Part shown: positions 2,409 through 12,171 of the stretch, one piece after another
Numbering within the stretch: the stretch's first letter is position 1
Layout: each line of letters starts with the position of its first letter
From: Minisyncoccota bacterium
GTDB taxonomy: Bacteria > Patescibacteriota > Minisyncoccia > Phycocordibacterales > JABAAK01
NCBI GenBank assembly: GCA_965216295.1
Contig: OZ244141.1
Span: 78,163-142,162, forward strand
DNA: 64,000 bases
Direction of reading: 5' to 3'
Notes under the pieces: generated by a model
What the model was told of the DNA's origin: nothing
Database searches by the model: none
Seen by the model: the letters and a program-made list of their open reading frames with translations, nothing else
Made by a program: the position numbers and the translations under genes

Positions 2409-3113
2409 CTATCCACCAATGAGTGCGCGAAGAGCCTGTAGCTCTGCATCCTGCTTATCTACCTGCGTTTGTAACTCTTTGATGCTTTCAATTAACAAAC
2501 CAGTGAGTGCGGGATAATCAACCTGCTTCATGCCATCATTATCTGTCTGCACCAACTCAGGAAATACCCGCTCAACCTCTTGTGCCACAACACCAATTGA
2601 CTTCTCACCGCTTTCTTTGTAAGTAAAGGAATAACCATTGATATTCTGTAACTTTTCACTTGGGTTACCTATCTTTTGTATATTCTCTTTTGCATTTCTA
2701 TCAGATGTATAATAGAAACCAGTCCCAGAAAACTTCCCCCCCTTTACTGATTGAAGCGCCCCCGCATATTTAGAAATTATTGTGTCGTTCTCCCACTTCC
2801 AGAGCAACTCTTCACATTTAAAAAAATTCCCTTCAGCATACCCAACGGTATAACCTTTCGCACAAGTTCCTCCAGGCCTAGGCTGACCTGGCGACTCAGT
2901 CGGCGCAGGATCAAAAAGAGCACTAGAATTAATACATTTCAATCCACTATCTGTCAATGTGAGAAATTCACTATTCCCACAGGCTGCAATTTCAGAGTTT
3001 TGCGATTGAACTGTGTAGTGAGAAAAAGAAATAAGTGTCAGTAACCCAACTAATACTACAGCTAAAAACCAACTGAAGATTAATCTTATACTCATATAGA
3101 CGAAGTGTAACAT
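2409..3113 (-). CDS. Secreted protein with a C-terminal peptidase S74 / intramolecular chaperone auto-processing domain (tail-fibre/endosialidase chaperone type)
   Basis: N-terminal TM/signal. C-terminal about 100 aa match the S74 chaperone domain consensus: YYTSDRNAKENIQKI, GVVAQEVERVFPELV, VDYPALTGLLIESIKELQ. Confidence 0.6.
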   Translation of the reverse strand: MLHFVYMSIRLIFSWFLAVVLVGLLTLISFSHYTVQSQNSEIAACGNSEFLTLTDSGLKCINSSALFDPAPTESPGQPRPGGTCAKGYTVGYAEGNFFKCEELLWKWENDTIISKYAGALQSVKGGKFSGTGFYYTSDRNAKENIQKIGNPSEKLQNINGYSFTYKESGEKSIGVVAQEVERVFPELVQTDNDGMKQVDYPALTGLLIESIKELQTQVDKQDAELQALRALIGG

Positions 3114-3260
3114 GGAATAGAAAAATAAAATCGATGTTGTGGAAATTGGGTAATTATCCTGTGATTCAAGGGCAAGATCAGACTAAAAGAGTGTGGTATA
3201 ACAGGAACAGATCTTCGTTGGTAAGATTTGTTTTTTCACTACACAAAGGAGGAAGAAAAA

Positions 3261-4775
3261 ATGCGTTATACAAAAAACACGCTGTCGTTTGATTCTGTAC
3301 AATTACGAGAAGATATCGTAGAGTCAGATCCAAATGAAAAAAATTATGGCATCAAGTTACACGCTTTGTCGGGTAACCCAGAACTGCTTGCTGCGGTTGG
3401 TGCCTCTCTCTCGAGAAACCCATCTCCACTCAAGGCAAGGCTGAAAAGTTTGAGCCCTGAGGTAAAAAAAAGGATTATGGATAAGTACTTTAAAAGGTAT
3501 GGACATAATTCTATAGGAGATATTGGCCATTTCGCCATTTCTTTTGAGGGAGTTTCAATGCTTGCCGCGTATCTTATATTAAACAATAGATTGTTTGATG
3601 GGCAAGAAGCATCCACTCGATATATAGGGTTTGCAGGAAAATACTGTTTCCCAAAAATCTTTCAAACAGAAGTAGAAGAAGAGTTGTGTCGATCATGGTT
3701 TTCACTATATGAAAGAGTGTTTCACCATTCAATGGAACACTGTATCAAAAGTGGTTACTCAAACGATGCTGCGGAAGCGGCAAGTTTTGACATAGCAGGT
3801 GGTCTGCTCCCTATCGCAACGAGAACATCAGTTTTCTTTGTGGGGAGTATACGAACCTTCTTAAAACAACTCTATTATATAGAAAGTATGGAAGACGAGG
3901 TATGCGAGTTGAGAGAGCTTGGGGAGAAACTGAGAGCATTACTGCTGGAAGTTTGTCCAAATTCTGTCTCATTAAAAAAAAGTGGTTCAATTGAAGCACA
4001 AAGAGAGATGACATTAACGCCATCGTTTGATGCTGTTGATCGAATTTTAAGAGTTGGTCTTGATTCTTATCTTCACCACGGATGGTCTGTTAGCGTAACA
4101 CCTATTCAAAAAAATTACCTCATGAATAAGGTAAAAGAAGGTATGTCAAGCTTGTTTCGCAATACTGCTACGCTTGGTATTAAGGAGGTGCACACCAAAT
4201 TAATACTAGTAGCAATGAGTGATCAAGTGTTTCATTTGTTTCGCGAGAGTCATCGCTTTTCATCTTTAGAGGATATCGTGGATGCTGTAGCAAAAGATAC
4301 TGCAACAGCACTTCTTGGTAACATCTCGGTTTCTTTCAAAATGGATTTTAGAAGTTTGAGAGACCTGCATCGCCATAGGATATTTCCTATCAATCAAGTA
4401 CGTCGCTTTGGAGGGGCGATAGATTGTAATCCTTGGTATCAGGAAAAAGTGAGAGATGTAAAACTCAAACAAGAGATGATAGATTTGTTCTCAAAAACGC
4501 TCGAGACATATAGTGTTCAAAAAAAACAGGAAAAGGGATATATCTCTAGACCTGTTGGTATTTTGCCGATGATGTCTCAGTTCCCTGCCATTATTTCTGG
4601 CAGTTTACACGACTGGTATTCAATGCTCATGACCCGTAAATCGGGAAAGGTGCATCCTGTCGTACATACGTTTGTACAAGACGTGTCTCAGATTATTAAT
4701 CACGGGCTTCGCTTTGATTTAATACAAGACATTCCTCAAACGGTGAATTATGAGAAACGATCGTCAGATAAGTAA
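3261..4775 (+). CDS. ThyX-family (flavin-dependent thymidylate synthase-like) protein, long tandem-domain form
   Basis: GGAGG RBS precedes ATG 3261 (MRYTKNT). The N-terminal half aligns with the ThyX core (GHNSIGDIGHFAISFEGVSMLAAYLILNNRLFDGQEASTRY versus GHETPFEHIVFTFHV...FRHRIASYNELSGRY), with RHR replaced by NNR. The second half keeps SFKMDFRSLRDLHRHRI. Its 515-aa length resembles the long ThyX forms. Confidence 0.45.
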   Translation: MRYTKNTLSFDSVQLREDIVESDPNEKNYGIKLHALSGNPELLAAVGASLSRNPSPLKARLKSLSPEVKKRIMDKYFKRYGHNSIGDIGHFAISFEGVSMLAAYLILNNRLFDGQEASTRYIGFAGKYCFPKIFQTEVEEELCRSWFSLYERVFHHSMEHCIKSGYSNDAAEAASFDIAGGLLPIATRTSVFFVGSIRTFLKQLYYIESMEDEVCELRELGEKLRALLLEVCPNSVSLKKSGSIEAQREMTLTPSFDAVDRILRVGLDSYLHHGWSVSVTPIQKNYLMNKVKEGMSSLFRNTATLGIKEVHTKLILVAMSDQVFHLFRESHRFSSLEDIVDAVAKDTATALLGNISVSFKMDFRSLRDLHRHRIFPINQVRRFGGAIDCNPWYQEKVRDVKLKQEMIDLFSKTLETYSVQKKQEKGYISRPVGILPMMSQFPAIISGSLHDWYSMLMTRKSGKVHPVVHTFVQDVSQIINHGLRFDLIQDIPQTVNYEKRSSDK

Positions 4776-5285
4776 CTCATAACTGTGCGCACCCAAGTAA
4801 TTATTGCTTGGGTGCGTTTTTTTAATCTTATAAGTGCTCCTAGAAGATGCTGTTTTTATTTCACTTGTCTTTGACTTTCTCTTATACACACCGAGCCGTT
4901 TTTTTATTACATCTTTTACATATCGTGAACAGGAAATTTTTTTTAAAACTTCTTCAATAAAACAGACCGGCATTTGTCCTCTGCAAGGTACAGACTTTGG
5001 TAGTTTTTCATGAAAAACCCAATCACAATTAAACCTAGTCATTTTATAAAACACAGAACATTCTTCTGGTTTTATAATCAAAACATTTTCATTTTGAGGT
5101 CGATTTTCAATCTCTTGACTGGTAGCTATAATATAGTAATACTCTCTCCCGCTTGGGGATGTAAAATCACCAAGGACAAGATGGTAGTGTGAATTTGTAT
5201 TGCCAGATTTTTCTAATTGACCACTTACATAATATAAAACATCTCCTCTACTGACATCCATACAAACGATAATTTTCTCTAGCAA
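4764..5285 (-). CDS. MazF/PemK-like putative toxin (endoribonuclease fold) with a Lys-rich C-terminal tail
   Basis: The N-terminal about 100 aa follow the Kid/PemK/MazF pattern (RGDVLYYVSG...GNTNSHYHLVLGD...YYYIIATSQEIENRP..NVLIIKPEE versus MazF GDLIWVDF..G.E.AGHRPAVVLS...CLCVPCTTQ...P.EVVL). Overlaps the upstream Panacea-domain gene by about 38 nt. The likely start is the internal Met at about 5261. Confidence 0.4.
   Translation of the reverse strand: MLEKIIVCMDVSRGDVLYYVSGQLEKSGNTNSHYHLVLGDFTSPSGREYYYIIATSQEIENRPQNENVLIIKPEECSVFYKMTRFNCDWVFHEKLPKSVPCRGQMPVCFIEEVLKKISCSRYVKDVIKKRLGVYKRKSKTSEIKTASSRSTYKIKKTHPSNNYLGAHSYELLI
4787..4829 (+). terminator. Rho-independent terminator downstream of the ThyX-like gene
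   Basis: Hairpin gcgcacccaag-taattattg-cttgggtgcg followed by ttttttt. Confidence 0.6.
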
Positions 5286-5847
5286 CTTCTAGTGTGGATT
5301 CTTCTACTTGCACAGGCCCATCGTTCACAAAAAAATCTTCCTTATCTATTGAAGCACACTGTCCTTCACCAAAATCATGTATGCCATGTTTTTTCCACGC
5401 ATCAAATGCATGCACTCCTTCTGTTTCGTGATTAATGAGATAATTTATATCTTTATCTCCATATTTTTCTAAAACATAATCTAAACACTCAGCATCAACT
5501 TCTGATATATAATCCGTATCTATTTCCTTTTCTTTATTAACTTCTACCGTGCTGTTGTTGTTCTTTATGTACTGTTGGGCATACTCTATTTCCTCTGCGC
5601 TTGTATGCTCACTATCAAAACCAACGATATCTGCCAAGTTTGATGGCACTGGTCCATTTTTAAGTGCTACATAATAATCTCCAGAGATGGTTTCTCCATA
5701 CTTTCTAAGCTTATACACATCTGCCAAAACAGCCAATTTTATTAATTTTAGTGACTCACACCTTTGACCTGGTAATTTATCTAATAAATACCTTGTCATT
5801 TGAACTCTGACCGCCAAACTATCAGAAATTATTGTTTTTGCCTCCAT
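5248..5847 (-). CDS. Panacea-domain (DUF4065, SocA/GepA-like) protein, putative antitoxin
   Basis: LKLIKLAVLADVYKLRKYGETISGDYYVALKNGPVPSNLADIV matches the Panacea core (KL.KLlY.a........G.pi.....y.A...GPV...vyd). Confidence 0.55.
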   Translation of the reverse strand: MEAKTIISDSLAVRVQMTRYLLDKLPGQRCESLKLIKLAVLADVYKLRKYGETISGDYYVALKNGPVPSNLADIVGFDSEHTSAEEIEYAQQYIKNNNSTVEVNKEKEIDTDYISEVDAECLDYVLEKYGDKDINYLINHETEGVHAFDAWKKHGIHDFGEGQCASIDKEDFFVNDGPVQVEESTLEVARENYRLYGCQ

Positions 5848-5908
5848 AACTGCAGTATATAACAGAATCTGTATTAATGAAAAGAATACCTGCTATTTGC
5901 CTGTGAAT

Positions 5909-5947
5909 ATACAAAACACTCAGAATTTACTTGGGTGCGTTTTTTTT
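5909..5947 (-). terminator. Hairpin plus U-tract at the 3' end of the LTD gene pair, sharing the cttgggtgcgtttttttt half-site with the 4787 terminator
   Basis: cactcag-aatttac-ttgggtg stem. T-runs on both strands (tttttttt on plus, ttttgtat on minus). Overlaps the last codons of gene 5927..6847. Confidence 0.35.
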
Positions 5948-6847
5948 ATATAAATAACAAGACTTTCGTGCCAATTGAAGTGTGCTTCGCTGCACACACA
6001 ATACTTTCCGAAGAACAAACATTAGATAGAAAAGCTCAATGGTGATAACAACAAAGACAATATCCATCCATCGTAAAACAAAAGTGAGTGTTGAAATAGT
6101 ACCATCAACCACACCTACTCCTCCTCGTTCTTGCACTTTCTCAGCAGAAACGACAGTGGTGTACGACAAGGCCTCGCGTGCGCTTTCTTCTGTTTTGGTC
6201 AACGGAACACTCTGCTCTTGCATCACCCGCTCTTTCAAAGACTCCACTGTAGCGACACGCTCCAACGGGAGTGTGACATTCTTTTTTTTCTGCTGACTGC
6301 TCATCGTTGGTATGGGATTTGTTGCAATAATACCCGGCGTGGCAGGAGCAATGATTTGTTTTCCTCCTCCAACAATATGTTGCGTTGCTCCTGTACCAAT
6401 AATAGGTTCGGTAGGAAGAAAGGAAATGCTGTTTTCCAATTGTCCTGTTTCTGTGGCAGAAATTCCAATCGTTGTTTTTTCATTCGGAATTGTAAAGTCA
6501 GAGATAAAAAGTCTCTGTGTGCGATCTGGGTACAACATATGAAATGTATCTGCGTGCTGTACGATTACCGCAACCGCACCAGAAGGAATCGATGATCCTT
6601 TGTTGTGTTCAAAAATGACATGAGAACGATCTCCAACATGGAATTGCAATTCAGTAACATCAACCGCCACCTCACCATCATTAACCACCTCTATCCATTG
6701 ATACCCCTTCCTAGTTTCACTCGTTGGTTGGTACATCACTTCAGTGATAACAACTTGCGCATGAATAGAAACACTCATCGCAAGAAAAAAGAGTGTTGCG
6801 ACACAAAAACCAGTGAGTTGATGAATAGTACACATTTGCGTATACAA
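5927..6847 (-). CDS. Secreted/membrane-anchored lamin-tail-domain (LTD) protein
   Basis: N-terminal signal/TM. VVITEVMYQPTSETRKGYQWIEVVNDGEVAVDVTELQF is a typical LTD core. C-terminal hydrophobic segment. Confidence 0.55.
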   Translation of the reverse strand: MYTQMCTIHQLTGFCVATLFFLAMSVSIHAQVVITEVMYQPTSETRKGYQWIEVVNDGEVAVDVTELQFHVGDRSHVIFEHNKGSSIPSGAVAVIVQHADTFHMLYPDRTQRLFISDFTIPNEKTTIGISATETGQLENSISFLPTEPIIGTGATQHIVGGGKQIIAPATPGIIATNPIPTMSSQQKKKNVTLPLERVATVESLKERVMQEQSVPLTKTEESAREALSYTTVVSAEKVQERGGVGVVDGTISTLTFVLRWMDIVFVVITIELFYLMFVLRKVLCVQRSTLQLARKSCYLYKKNAPK

Positions 6848-6849
6848 AT

Positions 6850-9222
6850 CTAGAGACTGCTCGTCGTCACGAAAATGCGTGGCAATAATTGTGTATTGCT
6901 CTCATTGTGTGCTGAATCAACAGCAGTGAGAGTACAGTCAGCAAATGTCCCTTCTGATAATTTGTAGTGTATGCCGTGACTACCATTACGGACAAGGTAT
7001 GGCAGTGATCCAATATCACAAGAACCGTCGTAATTCAATTGCGCCCAGTCACCCATCGTTAGACTAGCAACAGACACAGGGATAATTACTTTATTTCCGT
7101 AGAAACCAAGTGTTTGTGCATTCGTACCAAGTGTCAATTGTGGTGCCTGCGTGTTACGAACAACAACAATGCTGTCTCGAACGCTACTAACATTACCATC
7201 TCCATCACTTACTTTTGGTCTTATGAACACACGATTATCACTTGCTACACCATTTTCTGGTGAGAAGTGAATGCGGTACTGTACAACAACAGCACCTCTT
7301 GCTGCATTACTCACCGACACCCTTTCAAATCGAGCAGATGCTTCTGTTTCTATCCTTGGCACATCTTCAAGATATGTAGTTATGGTGTCGCGTGAATAGT
7401 TGGTAGTGCTATCAGCAATAGTTACCTGAAAGGTCACTGTGTTTTCTGTTGTGAAAAAGAGATTTTTCCCAGAAGTAACTGGATTGCCGTTAAAGGTAGT
7501 GATAGTGACATGTGGAATATCAGAACGAACCTCCTTGGCAGTTCCACCGCCACCGCCCGATATTACCCCTTGATCTCCAGGGAGACTACCAGGAGTTGGT
7601 GTTGCTTCAAAGATGGTTCTTGTTGATGAGATGTGTAGTGTTTTGCCACTATCTTTTTTAGCACCATCATTACTTGTGTACGAGATAGAGTAGAGTTCTT
7701 CTCCGGTACTAATCTTTTGTATCACAATCGTATCACCTGGATCGTTGAGAGCAAAAGTGCTGGTATATAGAGGTCCTGTGTATGCACCAAACGCTAATCT
7801 GAATGCTTCTGCATTTCCTGTAATAATTGCGACTTCCCCGCTTGCGATAGTCTGATCACCAGAGACATGGGTGATGGCTCTTCGTTGCCCTCCCTCAACA
7901 ACCTTGAGGTCTGCAAGATTCACTACTGCACTACTGTCGTTAACAATCTCTATCCATTCATCTCCTTCTGAAGAGTTGTAAGAGATTTCTGTTATCCGCA
8001 CTGCCGTCTGTACGATTCCTGAAATCTGTGGTGACGTTGTGTAGTATTCATTACCACCCTTATCAACCGCTCGCACACAAACCTTCTTGCCGTTGTTTTC
8101 AGGGTCGGTAATGCTGAAACGCGCCTCTCCATTTACCAATGAAATAGTTGTCTCAACATTTCTTGATGCAACATATTCTGCTTTGGTAGCACAACTCACT
8201 GTTCCTGTTTTGTAAAAAACAGTATCTGTTAAGTACGTATCAGCAACTTGTAGAATAACTTCTTTGTATGATGATGTTCCTGTCGGCTCTATCGTCACTG
8301 ATACGGTTGGTGGTGTGCTATCAAAAATCACTTGTTTACCATCGTGTGCCACGGTACCGCTTTTTGTAAGAGCGGTGCCAGAGTCATCGGTGAGACCGTG
8401 TATGGTATAGGTAACAACACCTTCCATAGAGGTAGACGGTAGTGTGTATGACGCTTCTTTCCGCACACTGTCTTCTCCAGAAAAATTCACCGATCCAACG
8501 TCATCACTACCAATATGAAATGTCGCCGTAGGTGTCTGGGTATCTCTCTCATGTAATAATTCCAAGGTAATTGTATCGCCAACTCCAACAAAAATACCTT
8601 CATTCGTTTCCTCCCCACCAACAGCGCTGGTAATCACGGAAAATCCAATGGGTGATGGTAGTGTGTAGGCTGTGTCTGGTGGGTTAATCGCTACCTCTCC
8701 TGGTGTTGCGGGTGCGACGATAAGATCGTTTTCTGTTGTGAGGTGGAGTGACATGCCTGTGTCTTCTGCACGGTAATCTTGTGTGTAAGTAATGGTATCA
8801 ATGACTGTTTCGCCTTGATAGAGTTTGATGGTTGCACCCTCTGGTAGTGAAATATCAGCGGTATAGACACCTCCTACAGAACTCCCATACGTTGTGGAGA
8901 ACAAGGCTGCGTCTTGTACGATAACTGCACTTTTTCCTGCACTCAACGTTGCTTTTGTGCTGCCATGTGTGCTGATACTTTGCTTTGCATCATTATCCAC
9001 TTGAATGCTCAACTCCGTGATAGTAACTGTATCCGTTCCATCGGCAATAATCTCAAGCCAATCACCACTTTTCACACTGCTGTACATAATCTCCGTTATC
9101 TCAACGGTATTTTGGGATTGTGCCATTGCAGGCATGGCGCTACCAACCAAGGTGGCTATAAATAAAGTAAGGACAAGGGGGGTGTATAGGAAATAAGTTT
9201 TTATGGTGTGGGTGTGAGACAT
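6850..9222 (-). CDS. Large secreted protein with two lamin-tail domains and Ig-like repeats
   Basis: Signal peptide (LVLTLFIATLVGSAMPAMA). LTD motifs VEITEIMYSSVKSGDWLEII and VRITEISYNSSEGDEWIEIVNDSSAVVNLADLKV. Thr/Ser-rich beta-rich body. Confidence 0.55.
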   Translation of the reverse strand: MSHTHTIKTYFLYTPLVLTLFIATLVGSAMPAMAQSQNTVEITEIMYSSVKSGDWLEIIADGTDTVTITELSIQVDNDAKQSISTHGSTKATLSAGKSAVIVQDAALFSTTYGSSVGGVYTADISLPEGATIKLYQGETVIDTITYTQDYRAEDTGMSLHLTTENDLIVAPATPGEVAINPPDTAYTLPSPIGFSVITSAVGGEETNEGIFVGVGDTITLELLHERDTQTPTATFHIGSDDVGSVNFSGEDSVRKEASYTLPSTSMEGVVTYTIHGLTDDSGTALTKSGTVAHDGKQVIFDSTPPTVSVTIEPTGTSSYKEVILQVADTYLTDTVFYKTGTVSCATKAEYVASRNVETTISLVNGEARFSITDPENNGKKVCVRAVDKGGNEYYTTSPQISGIVQTAVRITEISYNSSEGDEWIEIVNDSSAVVNLADLKVVEGGQRRAITHVSGDQTIASGEVAIITGNAEAFRLAFGAYTGPLYTSTFALNDPGDTIVIQKISTGEELYSISYTSNDGAKKDSGKTLHISSTRTIFEATPTPGSLPGDQGVISGGGGGTAKEVRSDIPHVTITTFNGNPVTSGKNLFFTTENTVTFQVTIADSTTNYSRDTITTYLEDVPRIETEASARFERVSVSNAARGAVVVQYRIHFSPENGVASDNRVFIRPKVSDGDGNVSSVRDSIVVVRNTQAPQLTLGTNAQTLGFYGNKVIIPVSVASLTMGDWAQLNYDGSCDIGSLPYLVRNGSHGIHYKLSEGTFADCTLTAVDSAHNESNTQLLPRIFVTTSSL

Positions 9223-10208: not shown

Positions 10209-10916
10209 CTACCGCAATTGTTTGTCTTCACGAATAACACCATCGTGCATGACCATAATGCGTTTTGCTTCATGAGCGTAATCAAGCTCGTGCGTCACCA
10301 TAATAATAGTTTGTCCATTATCGTTGAGCCTTTTAAATATAGCAATAATCTGAGAAGAGCGTTCAGTATCGAGGTTTGCTGTCGGTTCATCAGCAAACAG
10401 AACACGAGGTTCATGGACAATGGCACGGGCAATGGAAACACGTTGGTTCTCCCCACCAGAGAGTTGTCCAGGATAGAAATCAATACGATCTCGCATACCA
10501 AACGATGCGAGGGTGTCAGCGGCACGACGACGTGCCTCTGCTTTACTAGCGCCACGCATGAGCATTGGAATAGAAACATTCTCCCACGCTTTTAACTCTG
10601 GCATCATGGCATAATCTTGAAACACAAAACCAAAATGAAACAGACGATATTTCGTTTTCTCATGGGAAGACATGCGATGTGCATCATTACCAGAAACAAA
10701 AACACTACCCCCAGTTGGTTCATCAAGTAATCCGAGTTGGTACAAGAGAGTACTTTTACCAGTACCTGATTTACCGGTGATAGAGAGAAATTCTCCTTGG
10801 CGTACGGCAAAACTGATTCCTTTCAATACTTGTGTCTCCCGAGTACCATCAAGAAAAGTCCTCGTGATGTTCTCCACGCGTATAGCTTCTGTTTGATTGT
10901 CTATCATACTATTCAT
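10209..10916 (-). CDS. ABC transporter ATP-binding protein (MacB/LolD/FtsE-like)
   Basis: Walker A GKSGTGKST, ABC signature LSGGENQRVSIARA, Walker B VLFADEPT. Confidence 0.85.
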   Translation of the reverse strand: MNSMIDNQTEAIRVENITRTFLDGTRETQVLKGISFAVRQGEFLSITGKSGTGKSTLLYQLGLLDEPTGGSVFVSGNDAHRMSSHEKTKYRLFHFGFVFQDYAMMPELKAWENVSIPMLMRGASKAEARRRAADTLASFGMRDRIDFYPGQLSGGENQRVSIARAIVHEPRVLFADEPTANLDTERSSQIIAIFKRLNDNGQTIIMVTHELDYAHEAKRIMVMHDGVIREDKQLR

Positions 10917-10917
10917 A

Positions 10918-12171
10918 CTACCTACCCATTATCGCTTCAATCGCTGGTTTGCGAACAATATAGTATGCTGGCACAAACCCAGCAATCAGCGTTGCTATAA
11001 ATATTAGAAACATGCGAAAGGTGAGAGTTTCTGTTGTGAAATACAACACACCATCACTGAAAGGAAAATCAAGAGGGTTTGCCTGAAAGTACGGCACCAG
11101 GAGGAAAAAGAGTAATAGGAGTCCAAGAAATGTACCAATCACAGAGAAGAATAGTGCATAGAAAACATATGATAGACGAATCGCATTTGACGCAACGCCA
11201 ATGCCTTTCAAGATGCCAATGAAGCGTCGTCGAGATGTGGCGGTAACAAAAATAATAATAAAAATAGTAATGGACGCAACAATGAGACCAATCGCTCCGA
11301 CGACCGTACCGAGTGTTTTAAATGTTATGCGAATGTCATTTAAAAAAGGACCAATGGCTTCTTCAACGGTTTCAATATCTGCATATCGTTCATATCCTAA
11401 TGTTATGAGATGTTGTTTCACCACAGGAGCATCTGCCGAGGTGTGCAATCGAATGGCAATAAAGTTTGAGTCGTTTCCTGGGTTTTCACGAGAAAGGCGG
11501 ATATCGGCCTTGTTCATAATGATGGCAAGATCAAGCTCACCTGCCTTAGTACGAAAAACACCACGGACGGTGTACTGTTGATATTTGCTCCCTGAAAAAG
11601 CAATATAGACTGGATCTCCTGGATATACTTCACCAAACACACCCTCTCCAAACGGCGAATATCTCTCAAGCAGTGCTCTACCAATTAACACTCCGCCCCT
11701 ATCATTGCCCGCAAGGTACTGTCCTTCAATAATACTTGCATCAAGATGTGTTGTTCTCTTTTCATCCTCTGGATTAACTCCTAAAACGGTTGTTTGTATA
11801 AATTCTTGTTCGTTGTTCGCATCAGTAACGTTATAGTATTCACTTTTTTCAACAACTCTAACATCGCCTGCTGCATAGCGAGCAGAAAATGCTTTGATGC
11901 GAGAATCGGCGTCTAGATCGGAAATGAGGTACTGCGTTCTATCAATAAATGGCTTACCTTCTTTTGCCGTAATGAATATATCACCAAGTGCTTTAGTGCG
12001 CGTTCCCTCTAATGAGCCAACCACAATGCCTTCCAAAAGACCATTGATGACAACCAAGTTGAGAAAGGTGAGGAGCATGACGAACAAAATGAGTGATGTT
12101 GTCCATTTGTTTGATCCGCGAATGTAACGAACGAAAAGGAAAAAAGCTACTCGTATTTCTTGCAAATTCAT
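10918..12171 (-). CDS. ABC transporter permease, FtsX/MacB type, with a large extracytoplasmic domain
   Basis: N-terminal TM, about 250-aa periplasmic domain, then three C-terminal TMs (FtsX topology). Immediately upstream of the ATPase. Confidence 0.75.
   Translation of the reverse strand: MNLQEIRVAFFLFVRYIRGSNKWTTSLILFVMLLTFLNLVVINGLLEGIVVGSLEGTRTKALGDIFITAKEGKPFIDRTQYLISDLDADSRIKAFSARYAAGDVRVVEKSEYYNVTDANNEQEFIQTTVLGVNPEDEKRTTHLDASIIEGQYLAGNDRGGVLIGRALLERYSPFGEGVFGEVYPGDPVYIAFSGSKYQQYTVRGVFRTKAGELDLAIIMNKADIRLSRENPGNDSNFIAIRLHTSADAPVVKQHLITLGYERYADIETVEEAIGPFLNDIRITFKTLGTVVGAIGLIVASITIFIIIFVTATSRRRFIGILKGIGVASNAIRLSYVFYALFFSVIGTFLGLLLLFFLLVPYFQANPLDFPFSDGVLYFTTETLTFRMFLIFIATLIAGFVPAYYIVRKPAIEAIMGR

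Follow-up and report, generated by a model that had tools for sequence, protein, structure and literature searches.

A probable PanA–PanT toxin–antitoxin cassette with a very divergent toxin of predicted MazF fold in a Minisyncoccota bacterium

Toxin–antitoxin (TA) systems in which a Panacea-domain antitoxin (PanA) is paired with a small toxin (PanT) are an established class, and MazF-like proteins are among their toxins. PemK is one of the PanT domains recognised by CDD, and two further toxin clusters, T5 and T6, have no CDD match and come out as EndoA/PemK/MazF by HHpred (up to 99.5% for T5) (Kurata et al., 2022; PMC8832971). In that study, pairs from Pseudomonas moraviensis and Bifidobacterium ruminantium were validated, with the MazF-like PanTs inhibiting translation and PanA neutralising them; a T5 toxin from Chryseobacterium was found to be toxic, cluster T5 was rich in Bacteroidetes, and stable PanA:PanT complexes were obtained for diverse PanTs, indicating direct neutralisation. 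PanA neutralises either via the Panacea fold or via appended elements, e.g. C-terminal Phd-C helices, and MazF/PemK ranks with the most frequent folds of the TA network (Ernits et al., 2023; PMC10440598). Here we describe two overlapping genes, panA and panT, at 4764–5847 on the reverse strand of a 64,000-nucleotide stretch of a Minisyncoccota bacterium (assembly GCA_965216295.1, contig OZ244141.1, positions 78,163–142,162; hereafter the window). We think it likely that they form a chromosomal type II PanAT cassette, composed of an acidic Panacea antitoxin and a basic, very divergent toxin of the MazF/Kid fold. A preliminary description of the window had regarded the combination of Panacea with a MazF-like toxin as non-canonical, a view that we abandon in light of the published pairs, two of them validated (Kurata et al., 2022). 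The pairing is of a known, experimentally validated kind, and the locus is a very divergent, lineage-restricted member of the PanAT group.

The antitoxin gene panA lies at 5248..5847 (−) and encodes 199 amino acids. Its product matches Pfam PF13274 (SocA_Panacea, DUF4065) over residues 35–140 with an E-value of 8.9e-16 and 59.3 bits, compared with a gathering threshold of 25.7 bits, and the relatives P0003, P0004 and P0005 match the same family. Past the Pfam domain, the subfamily alignment shows an acidic C-terminal extension that is conserved and some 60 residues long (VHAFxAWKKH ... DFFxNDGPVQV). This alignment (A3) holds nine sequences, with a mean column identity of 64% and pairwise identities of 45–72%. 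PanA has an isoelectric point (pI) of 4.6 and carries a net charge of −17; the pI of PanT, a basic protein, is 9.3. The Panacea core had already been noted in the preliminary description, and we recovered both of its open reading frames (ORFs) unchanged, namely panA and a downstream ORF of 173 amino acids at 4764..5285 (−). The overlap of 38 nt that it gave for the two genes requires revision: it applies to the longest downstream ORF, which begins at TTG 5285, and not to the start supported by homologues. ATG 5261 (MDVSRGD...) is where the alignment of all homologues begins, and the 165-residue product starting there is also the one in the public gene calls (P0001); from these comparisons we take this ATG to be the likely start of panT. 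Since panT then begins at ATG 5261 and not at TTG 5285, its overlap with the panA stop is 14 nt (5248..5261, −). The same geometry recurs in relatives: the overlap is also 14 nt at the loci L003 (from the second ATG), L004, L005, L007 and L009, and 11 nt at L001.

The pair is conserved. At eight of nine loci (the window, L001, L003–L007 and L009), a toxin homologue directly follows and overlaps a PanA gene of the same subfamily, so the conserved pairing in related genomes that had been suggested as a check is indeed found. The flanking genes differ per locus, being rpsB-tsf and transketolase, pyruvate kinase and truB, pheT-thyA, gltX and an M23 peptidase, aspS and trpS, or Fic and a KAP NTPase; in the window they are thyX and a gene for a Lamin-tail-domain (LTD) protein. 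Because the pair is conserved while the flanking genes are different in every locus, panA and panT travel together as a unit. With the Panacea gene first, an overlap, a pairing kept across unrelated contexts, and an acidic antitoxin next to a basic toxin, the locus looks like a TA pair, as originally proposed. It also conforms to the definition of PanAT systems used by Kurata et al. (2022), given the 14-nt overlap and the occurrence of the pair at eight loci with different neighbours, including one in a metagenome-assembled genome (MAG) of Candidatus Kaiserbacteria. In one protein of 316 residues from the representatives library, P0005, the PanA subfamily (Pfam Panacea residues 34–137) is fused to the toxin (approximately residues 197–314), which could be either a genuine fused TA protein or a frameshift within the 14-nt overlap. 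The ratio of nonsynonymous to synonymous substitutions (dN/dS) is about 0.08–0.10 for the closer toxin pairs and 0.07–0.13 for PanA, and since dS is saturated the value of the window copy itself is uninformative. In the relatives, these ratios show both genes to be under purifying selection.

A toxin homologue not preceded by its own PanA was observed once only, at L008, where the toxin (P0014, 5001–5384) has a lost or scrambled C-terminus in place of the conserved one. Conversely, solo PanA genes of the same subfamily, 49–50% identical to that of the window, are present at L002 (263–853) and L010 (4001–4594), and at L014. They look intact and keep the C-terminal extension, with no toxin downstream. 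Intact solo antitoxins versus a degraded orphan toxin fit the logic of a TA system. Regarding the contexts of these genes, the solo PanA of L002 has a terminator-like hairpin at its end and that of L010 is followed by type IV pilin-like genes. At L008 (3930–5384), P0014 lies some 200 nt past two genes, one for a different Panacea protein (155 aa) and one for an unrelated partner of 129 aa, in surroundings rich in defence and TA genes (RadC, an M78 peptidase with DUF4411, DUF3800 and PIN_12).

Several of the other loci have features of their own. L001 contains a head-to-head inverted duplication (3031–4106 versus 4285–5561) that includes the end of the neighbouring KAP-NTPase gene, such that a second, identical toxin copy (3308–3718, −) and a partial PanA (3711–4106, −) face the complete pair; this could be a real palindrome or an assembly artefact. 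At L006 the PanA gene (3370–3961) is frameshifted near its C-terminus, the remainder being readable in another frame (3779–3961), which reflects a sequencing error or else incipient decay, and the gene caller has extended the N-terminus of the L006 toxin to give 152 aa. At L007, 5598–6414 (−) is occupied by a further, dissimilar Panacea gene (186 aa) and a downstream ORF of 89 aa that overlaps it, convergent with and adjoining the PanA–toxin pair. When the window is compared with the other loci, PanA is 45–55% identical and PanT 32–39%, so conservation is higher in the antitoxin. This difference fits constraints on the Panacea domain that would go beyond the binding of its toxin.

The conserved core of panT comprises residues 1–125 (4887..5261, −) and corresponds to the predicted MazF/Kid-fold domain. 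The window protein keeps Y11, G20, H25, H27, T47, S48, F71, K73, T75, R76, F77, D80, G95, S112 and K120, so that all family-invariant residues are present, as are all near-invariant ones except Q43. The family is small. A word-indexed search of 5.8 billion proteins matched PanT only to itself, a full HMMER scan of 1.84 billion cluster representatives returned five true relatives and one spurious WW-repeat protein, and a profile search added four further relatives, giving about a dozen proteins among the billions searched. The matches to WW domains (2l5f in the PDB and P0007 among the representatives) were rejected, as they involve only a YYY/GR.YYY segment. The relatives are 127–152 aa long and end at most five residues from the conserved motif ...S..VK...KKRMGI, leaving aside P0009 and the L009 copy (7–11 extra residues) and the truncated P0008 and P0014. 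Relatives with a named source come exclusively from Candidatus Kaiserbacteria MAGs (Patescibacteria). Two Bacteroidota loci with more distant PanA genes (L011, L012) encode, downstream of PanA, proteins homologous to the PanT family (hhalign 94.5%, E 8e-8), and because of this homology the family may be a distant branch of a Bacteroidetes-rich cluster of Kurata et al. (2022). With the PanA alignment as query, IMG/VR viral contigs gave no relatives, and JGI metagenomes gave a single close locus, apparently the same solo PanA as L010.

Database searches with the panT product gave no significant match in Pfam, NCBIfam, PADLOC, PHROG or the sequences of the PDB (the last by phmmer and by profile), and no MazF was found in the PDB-sequence profile searches. 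We modelled the protein with AlphaFold2 (AF2) from an alignment of eight sequences and obtained a mean pLDDT (predicted local distance difference test) of 80, with about 90 over residues 1–130 and disorder from residue 131. A Foldseek search of the PDB with this model returned MazF structures for all of the top 50 matches, with target-normalised template modelling (TM) scores of 0.59–0.71 and modest E-values (3e-3 and weaker), and the top matches in BFVD (viral proteins) are annotated as PemK-like or as endoribonuclease. The model has the architecture of the MazF/Kid/CcdB superfamily, an SH3-like beta-barrel followed by a C-terminal alpha-helix, is closest to solved MazF and Kid structures, and connects beta2 and beta3 by a tight hairpin. 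The panT product is thus predicted to adopt the MazF/Kid/CcdB fold. The preliminary description had read a MazF/Kid pattern directly from the residues and had proposed a MazF/CcdB-like barrel; the pattern is not supported by any library match, and the barrel is what the structure prediction returned. The link between PanT and MazF is undetectable by sequence and holds at the level of the predicted fold.

Upstream of panA, a promoter scan identified a −10-like hexamer, TATACT (5854..5859, −), which ends 6 nt before the panA ATG, and a weak −35-like TTTTCA (5878–5883, −). TATACT, TATAAT or TATAGT is located 6–7 nt before the panA ATG at all ten close-subfamily loci (the window, L001–L007, L009 and L010), and no Shine–Dalgarno sequence precedes either panA or panT. 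The recurrence of this spacing points to a leaderless panAT mRNA as a conserved trait, and coupled translation of panT is suggested by the 14-nt overlap. A perfect palindrome, ACAGATTCTGT (5862–5872, −), lies between the −35-like and −10-like elements of the window; it is not conserved at the other loci and could be an operator. No RNA family was recognised by Rfam in the vicinity of the panAT locus. In the mechanism that we envisage, a leaderless mRNA would be made from the conserved TATACT box and panT would be translated by coupling across the overlap. By analogy with validated PanAT systems, PanA would bind PanT directly and block it, either via the Panacea fold or via the acidic C-terminal extension, which would then act like the tail of MazE or the Phd-C element of another PanA and is for this reason a candidate neutralising element. 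Free PanT would most likely be a sequence-specific endoribonuclease that arrests translation, as inferred from the validated MazF-like PanTs.

The locus resembles the MazF-like PanATs of Kurata et al. (2022) in its gene order, with a Panacea-only ('noNTD') antitoxin first and a small toxin overlapping or abutting it by a few nt, and PanT resembles their T5 and T6 toxins in lacking a domain-database match and yet being structurally MazF/EndoA/PemK-like. It differs from their PanTs in forming a subfamily that is separate by sequence, with only the five real relatives among the 1.84 billion representatives, and from their PanATs in the conserved 60-aa acidic extension of PanA. Candidatus Kaiserbacteria does not occur among those entries of their dataset that we compared. 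Compared with MazEF and Kis–Kid (PemIK), where the antitoxin is MazE or Kis of the AbrB or ribbon–helix–helix type, the partner here is a Panacea protein, and no MazE-like ORF is present within 4300–6400 of the window. PanT also deviates from the MazEF/Kid toxins themselves: it lacks the PF02452 signature, has invariant His25 and His27 in place of a conserved catalytic Arg, and carries at its C-terminus an additional basic helix that is conserved (S112..K120-K-R) as well as the tight beta2–beta3 hairpin further upstream in the chain. In type III systems such as ToxN and CptN the antitoxin is a repetitive RNA, whereas here it is a protein, and no tandem repeats were seen beside the gene.

The cassette appears to be an insertion. 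Its GC content is 0.344 compared with 0.407 in the flanks, and it is lower by 0.06–0.10 at six of eight loci. In the window it is bracketed by a direct repeat (D2) of 23 nt, the two copies being 91% identical and 1123 nt apart. The proximal copy (4804..4826) makes up the right-hand arm of the hairpin that terminates thyX, together with its T-run, and the distal copy (5927..5949) comprises the last codons and the stop of the LTD-domain gene (5927..6847, −). An exact 17-nt core of the repeat occurs twice in the 64 kb, against 0.02 occurrences expected. The hairpin (4787..4817, +) is an intrinsic terminator of thyX with a 14-bp stem followed by a T-run (−22.8 kcal/mol, z −6.8). The distal repeat copy has no hairpin partner of its own and is perfectly complementary, over 13 nt, to the left arm of the hairpin at 4788–4800, 1.1 kb away. 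The hairpin was probably once a bidirectional terminator shared by thyX and the LTD gene, and the simplest reading is that the 1123-nt cassette was inserted into it; the presumed uninterrupted intergenic terminator would be GCGCACCCAAGTAA..TTACTTGGGTGCGTTTTTTTT. No empty-site sequence was found for this insertion model. Flanking repeats, which in each case duplicate the 3' end of the host gene lying upstream in the same orientation, were seen at two of eight loci, the window and L006; the other six have none. At L006 the repeats (3092–3180 and 4350–4439) are 90 nt long with about 90% identity and duplicate the 3' end of the M23-peptidase gene.

A number of observations weigh against a PanAT cassette with a MazF/Kid-fold toxin. 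PADLOC has no match at the panAT locus, and the PanT of the window is not matched by Pfam PF02452 (MazF/PemK), the best family match (E 0.088) being a fragment of one relative. When PanT was compared by hhalign with a MazF/Kid/ChpBK profile (an alignment verified against the PDB), the probability was only 4.6–10%, though the register was the topologically expected one. The fold prediction is based on eight sequences only. The AF2 model of PanA, made from an alignment of three sequences, has a pLDDT of 44.6 and is unusable, which makes the mode of neutralisation purely conjectural. The C-terminal extension of 40 aa on the window PanT is abnormal, and this copy may be impaired. Lastly, the residue that is central to MazF catalysis has no conserved counterpart in PanT, and the mapping of the active site, considered next, comes from a forced alignment.

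MazF catalysis depends on an Arg at the start of strand 2 and a Thr or Ser at the end of strand 3, the catalytic pair being R25/T48 in B. subtilis MazF and R29/T52 in E. coli MazF. In a forced global hhalign alignment, a low-confidence mapping backed by the order of secondary-structure elements and not by superposition, the invariant T47 of PanT (ATSQ) falls on T48 (ITAQ) of B. subtilis MazF, and T47/S48 would occupy the position of the catalytic Thr. The region of the canonical Arg reads GNTNS in the window versus GRRE in many relatives: the equivalent position is R in some relatives, N or T in the window, I in P0009 and K in P0010. Just after it, H25 and H27 are invariant among the close relatives; in the Bacteroidota homologues H25 is present in both, and H27 is missing in L011. 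It may be, then, that H25 (and H27) replaces the canonical Arg in PanT.

Taken further, these residues would make the family a novel version of the MazF fold, catalytically or functionally distinct, with members in Patescibacteria (the Candidate Phyla Radiation, CPR) and distant relatives in Bacteroidota. Here, H25 (with or without H27) and T47/S48 would replace Arg/Thr, or the target would not be RNA, the toxin would be neutralised via the undescribed acidic extension of PanA, and the cassette would be self-mobile by duplicating the 3' end of the upstream host gene (17–23 nt; 90 nt at L006). We regard this combination as unlikely. A related explanation retains the PanAT module and the MazF/CcdB fold and supposes that the toxin is not an RNase but a CcdB-like gyrase poison or a protein with some other target. 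CcdB binds gyrase through its C-terminal residues W99-G100-I101. PanT is structurally less similar to CcdB than to MazF/Kid and has a different antitoxin from that of CcdAB; we judge this explanation to be rather improbable.

We turn next to the tail of PanT. The preliminary description had remarked on a Lys-rich tail of about 60 aa. A basic tail does exist, with a net charge of +11 over residues 111–165, but only some 15 residues of it are conserved (S..VK...KKRLGV), and the last 40 are a read-through specific to the window. Residues ~111–125 (CSRYVKDVIKKRLGV) are part of the conserved basic C-terminal motif of the family, in which S112 and K120 are invariant. The 40 codons that follow (residues 126–165, with the stop at the end; 4764..4886, −) have no equivalent in any homologue and are predicted with a pLDDT below 50. 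Directly after ...KKRLGV the window has a TAT codon, whereas the homologues stop 0–5 residues from the equivalent point (P0009 and the L009 copy excepted), and one base change from TAA or TAG would produce this TAT. Residues 146–165 are encoded by the repeat copy, the thyX terminator hairpin (4787–4817) and the last 12 nt of thyX. We read residues 126–165 as the product of a lost stop codon, followed by read-through of the 3' untranslated region, the repeat, the terminator and the end of thyX, and not as a feature of the family.

Given this tail, the window cassette might be a decaying remnant that lost its stop codon, acquired a disordered tail of 40 aa and no longer functions as a TA pair. 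The tail is unique to the window and extends beyond the insertion junction, taking in host DNA and the last part of thyX, and decay is seen in relatives too, with the frameshifted PanA of L006, the scrambled orphan toxin of L008 and the solo PanA genes of L002 and L010. On the other hand, both ORFs are intact, neither the 14-nt overlap nor the −10 box has been lost, the toxin retains its invariant residues and lacks just Q43 among the near-invariant ones, and a disordered C-terminal tail need not abolish activity. On balance we consider decay of the pair unlikely.

PanA might also act in the manner of SocA, as an adaptor for proteolysis through which the toxin would reach ClpXP (type VI) instead of being sequestered. 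The Caulobacter SocAB system shares the SocA_Panacea domain of its antitoxin with the present pair, the Pfam family is named after SocA, and the long, disordered, basic tail of the window toxin could serve as a degron. In SocAB, however, SocA is a ClpXP adaptor and SocB an unrelated toxin that binds DnaN, while a MazF-fold toxin and direct binding are expected here. The stable complexes of PanA with diverse PanTs reported by Kurata et al. (2022) point to direct neutralisation, the tail is missing from every homologue and is therefore not part of a conserved mechanism, and a natural PanA::PanT fusion ORF exists, so that we hold the adaptor model to be very improbable. Finally, the notion that there is no TA system at all, but a chance adjacency of unrelated small genes or a non-coding downstream ORF, may draw on the failure of curated family and defence-system models to match that ORF, and is effectively refuted by an adjacency and overlap kept at eight loci with different flanks, by a dN far below dS in relatives, by the confident fold prediction and by the gene fusion.

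Read as a PanAT system, the locus adds a lineage-restricted, divergent MazF-fold subfamily to the PanAT repertoire, with named sources in the CPR/Patescibacteria, and it introduces a toxin family that four profile libraries (Pfam, NCBIfam, PADLOC and PHROGs) do not recognise. The picture of Panacea as a hyperpromiscuous antitoxin domain is unchanged, and our findings fit it. The window copy provides an example of an unusual C-terminal tail that arises through stop-codon loss at an insertion junction, and the invariant His and Thr-Ser residues bear on whether MazF-fold toxins can use an active site without Arg. Points of modest interest are the putative His-for-Arg active site, the PanA extension, the leaderless promoter geometry and the repeat-flanked insertion.

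As to the genes around the cassette, the thyX-like neighbour (3228–4775, +) is unusually long, with 515 aa and two matched Thy1 stretches, and its last 12 nt convergently overlap the extended panT. Further afield, a Peptidase_S74 (endosialidase chaperone) domain protein and two Lamin-tail-domain proteins are encoded at 2409–3113 (−), 5927–6847 (−) and 6850–9222 (−), and a pair of ABC/FtsX transporter genes lies at 10209–12171. The neighbourhood suggests cell-surface functions rather than an obvious defence island.

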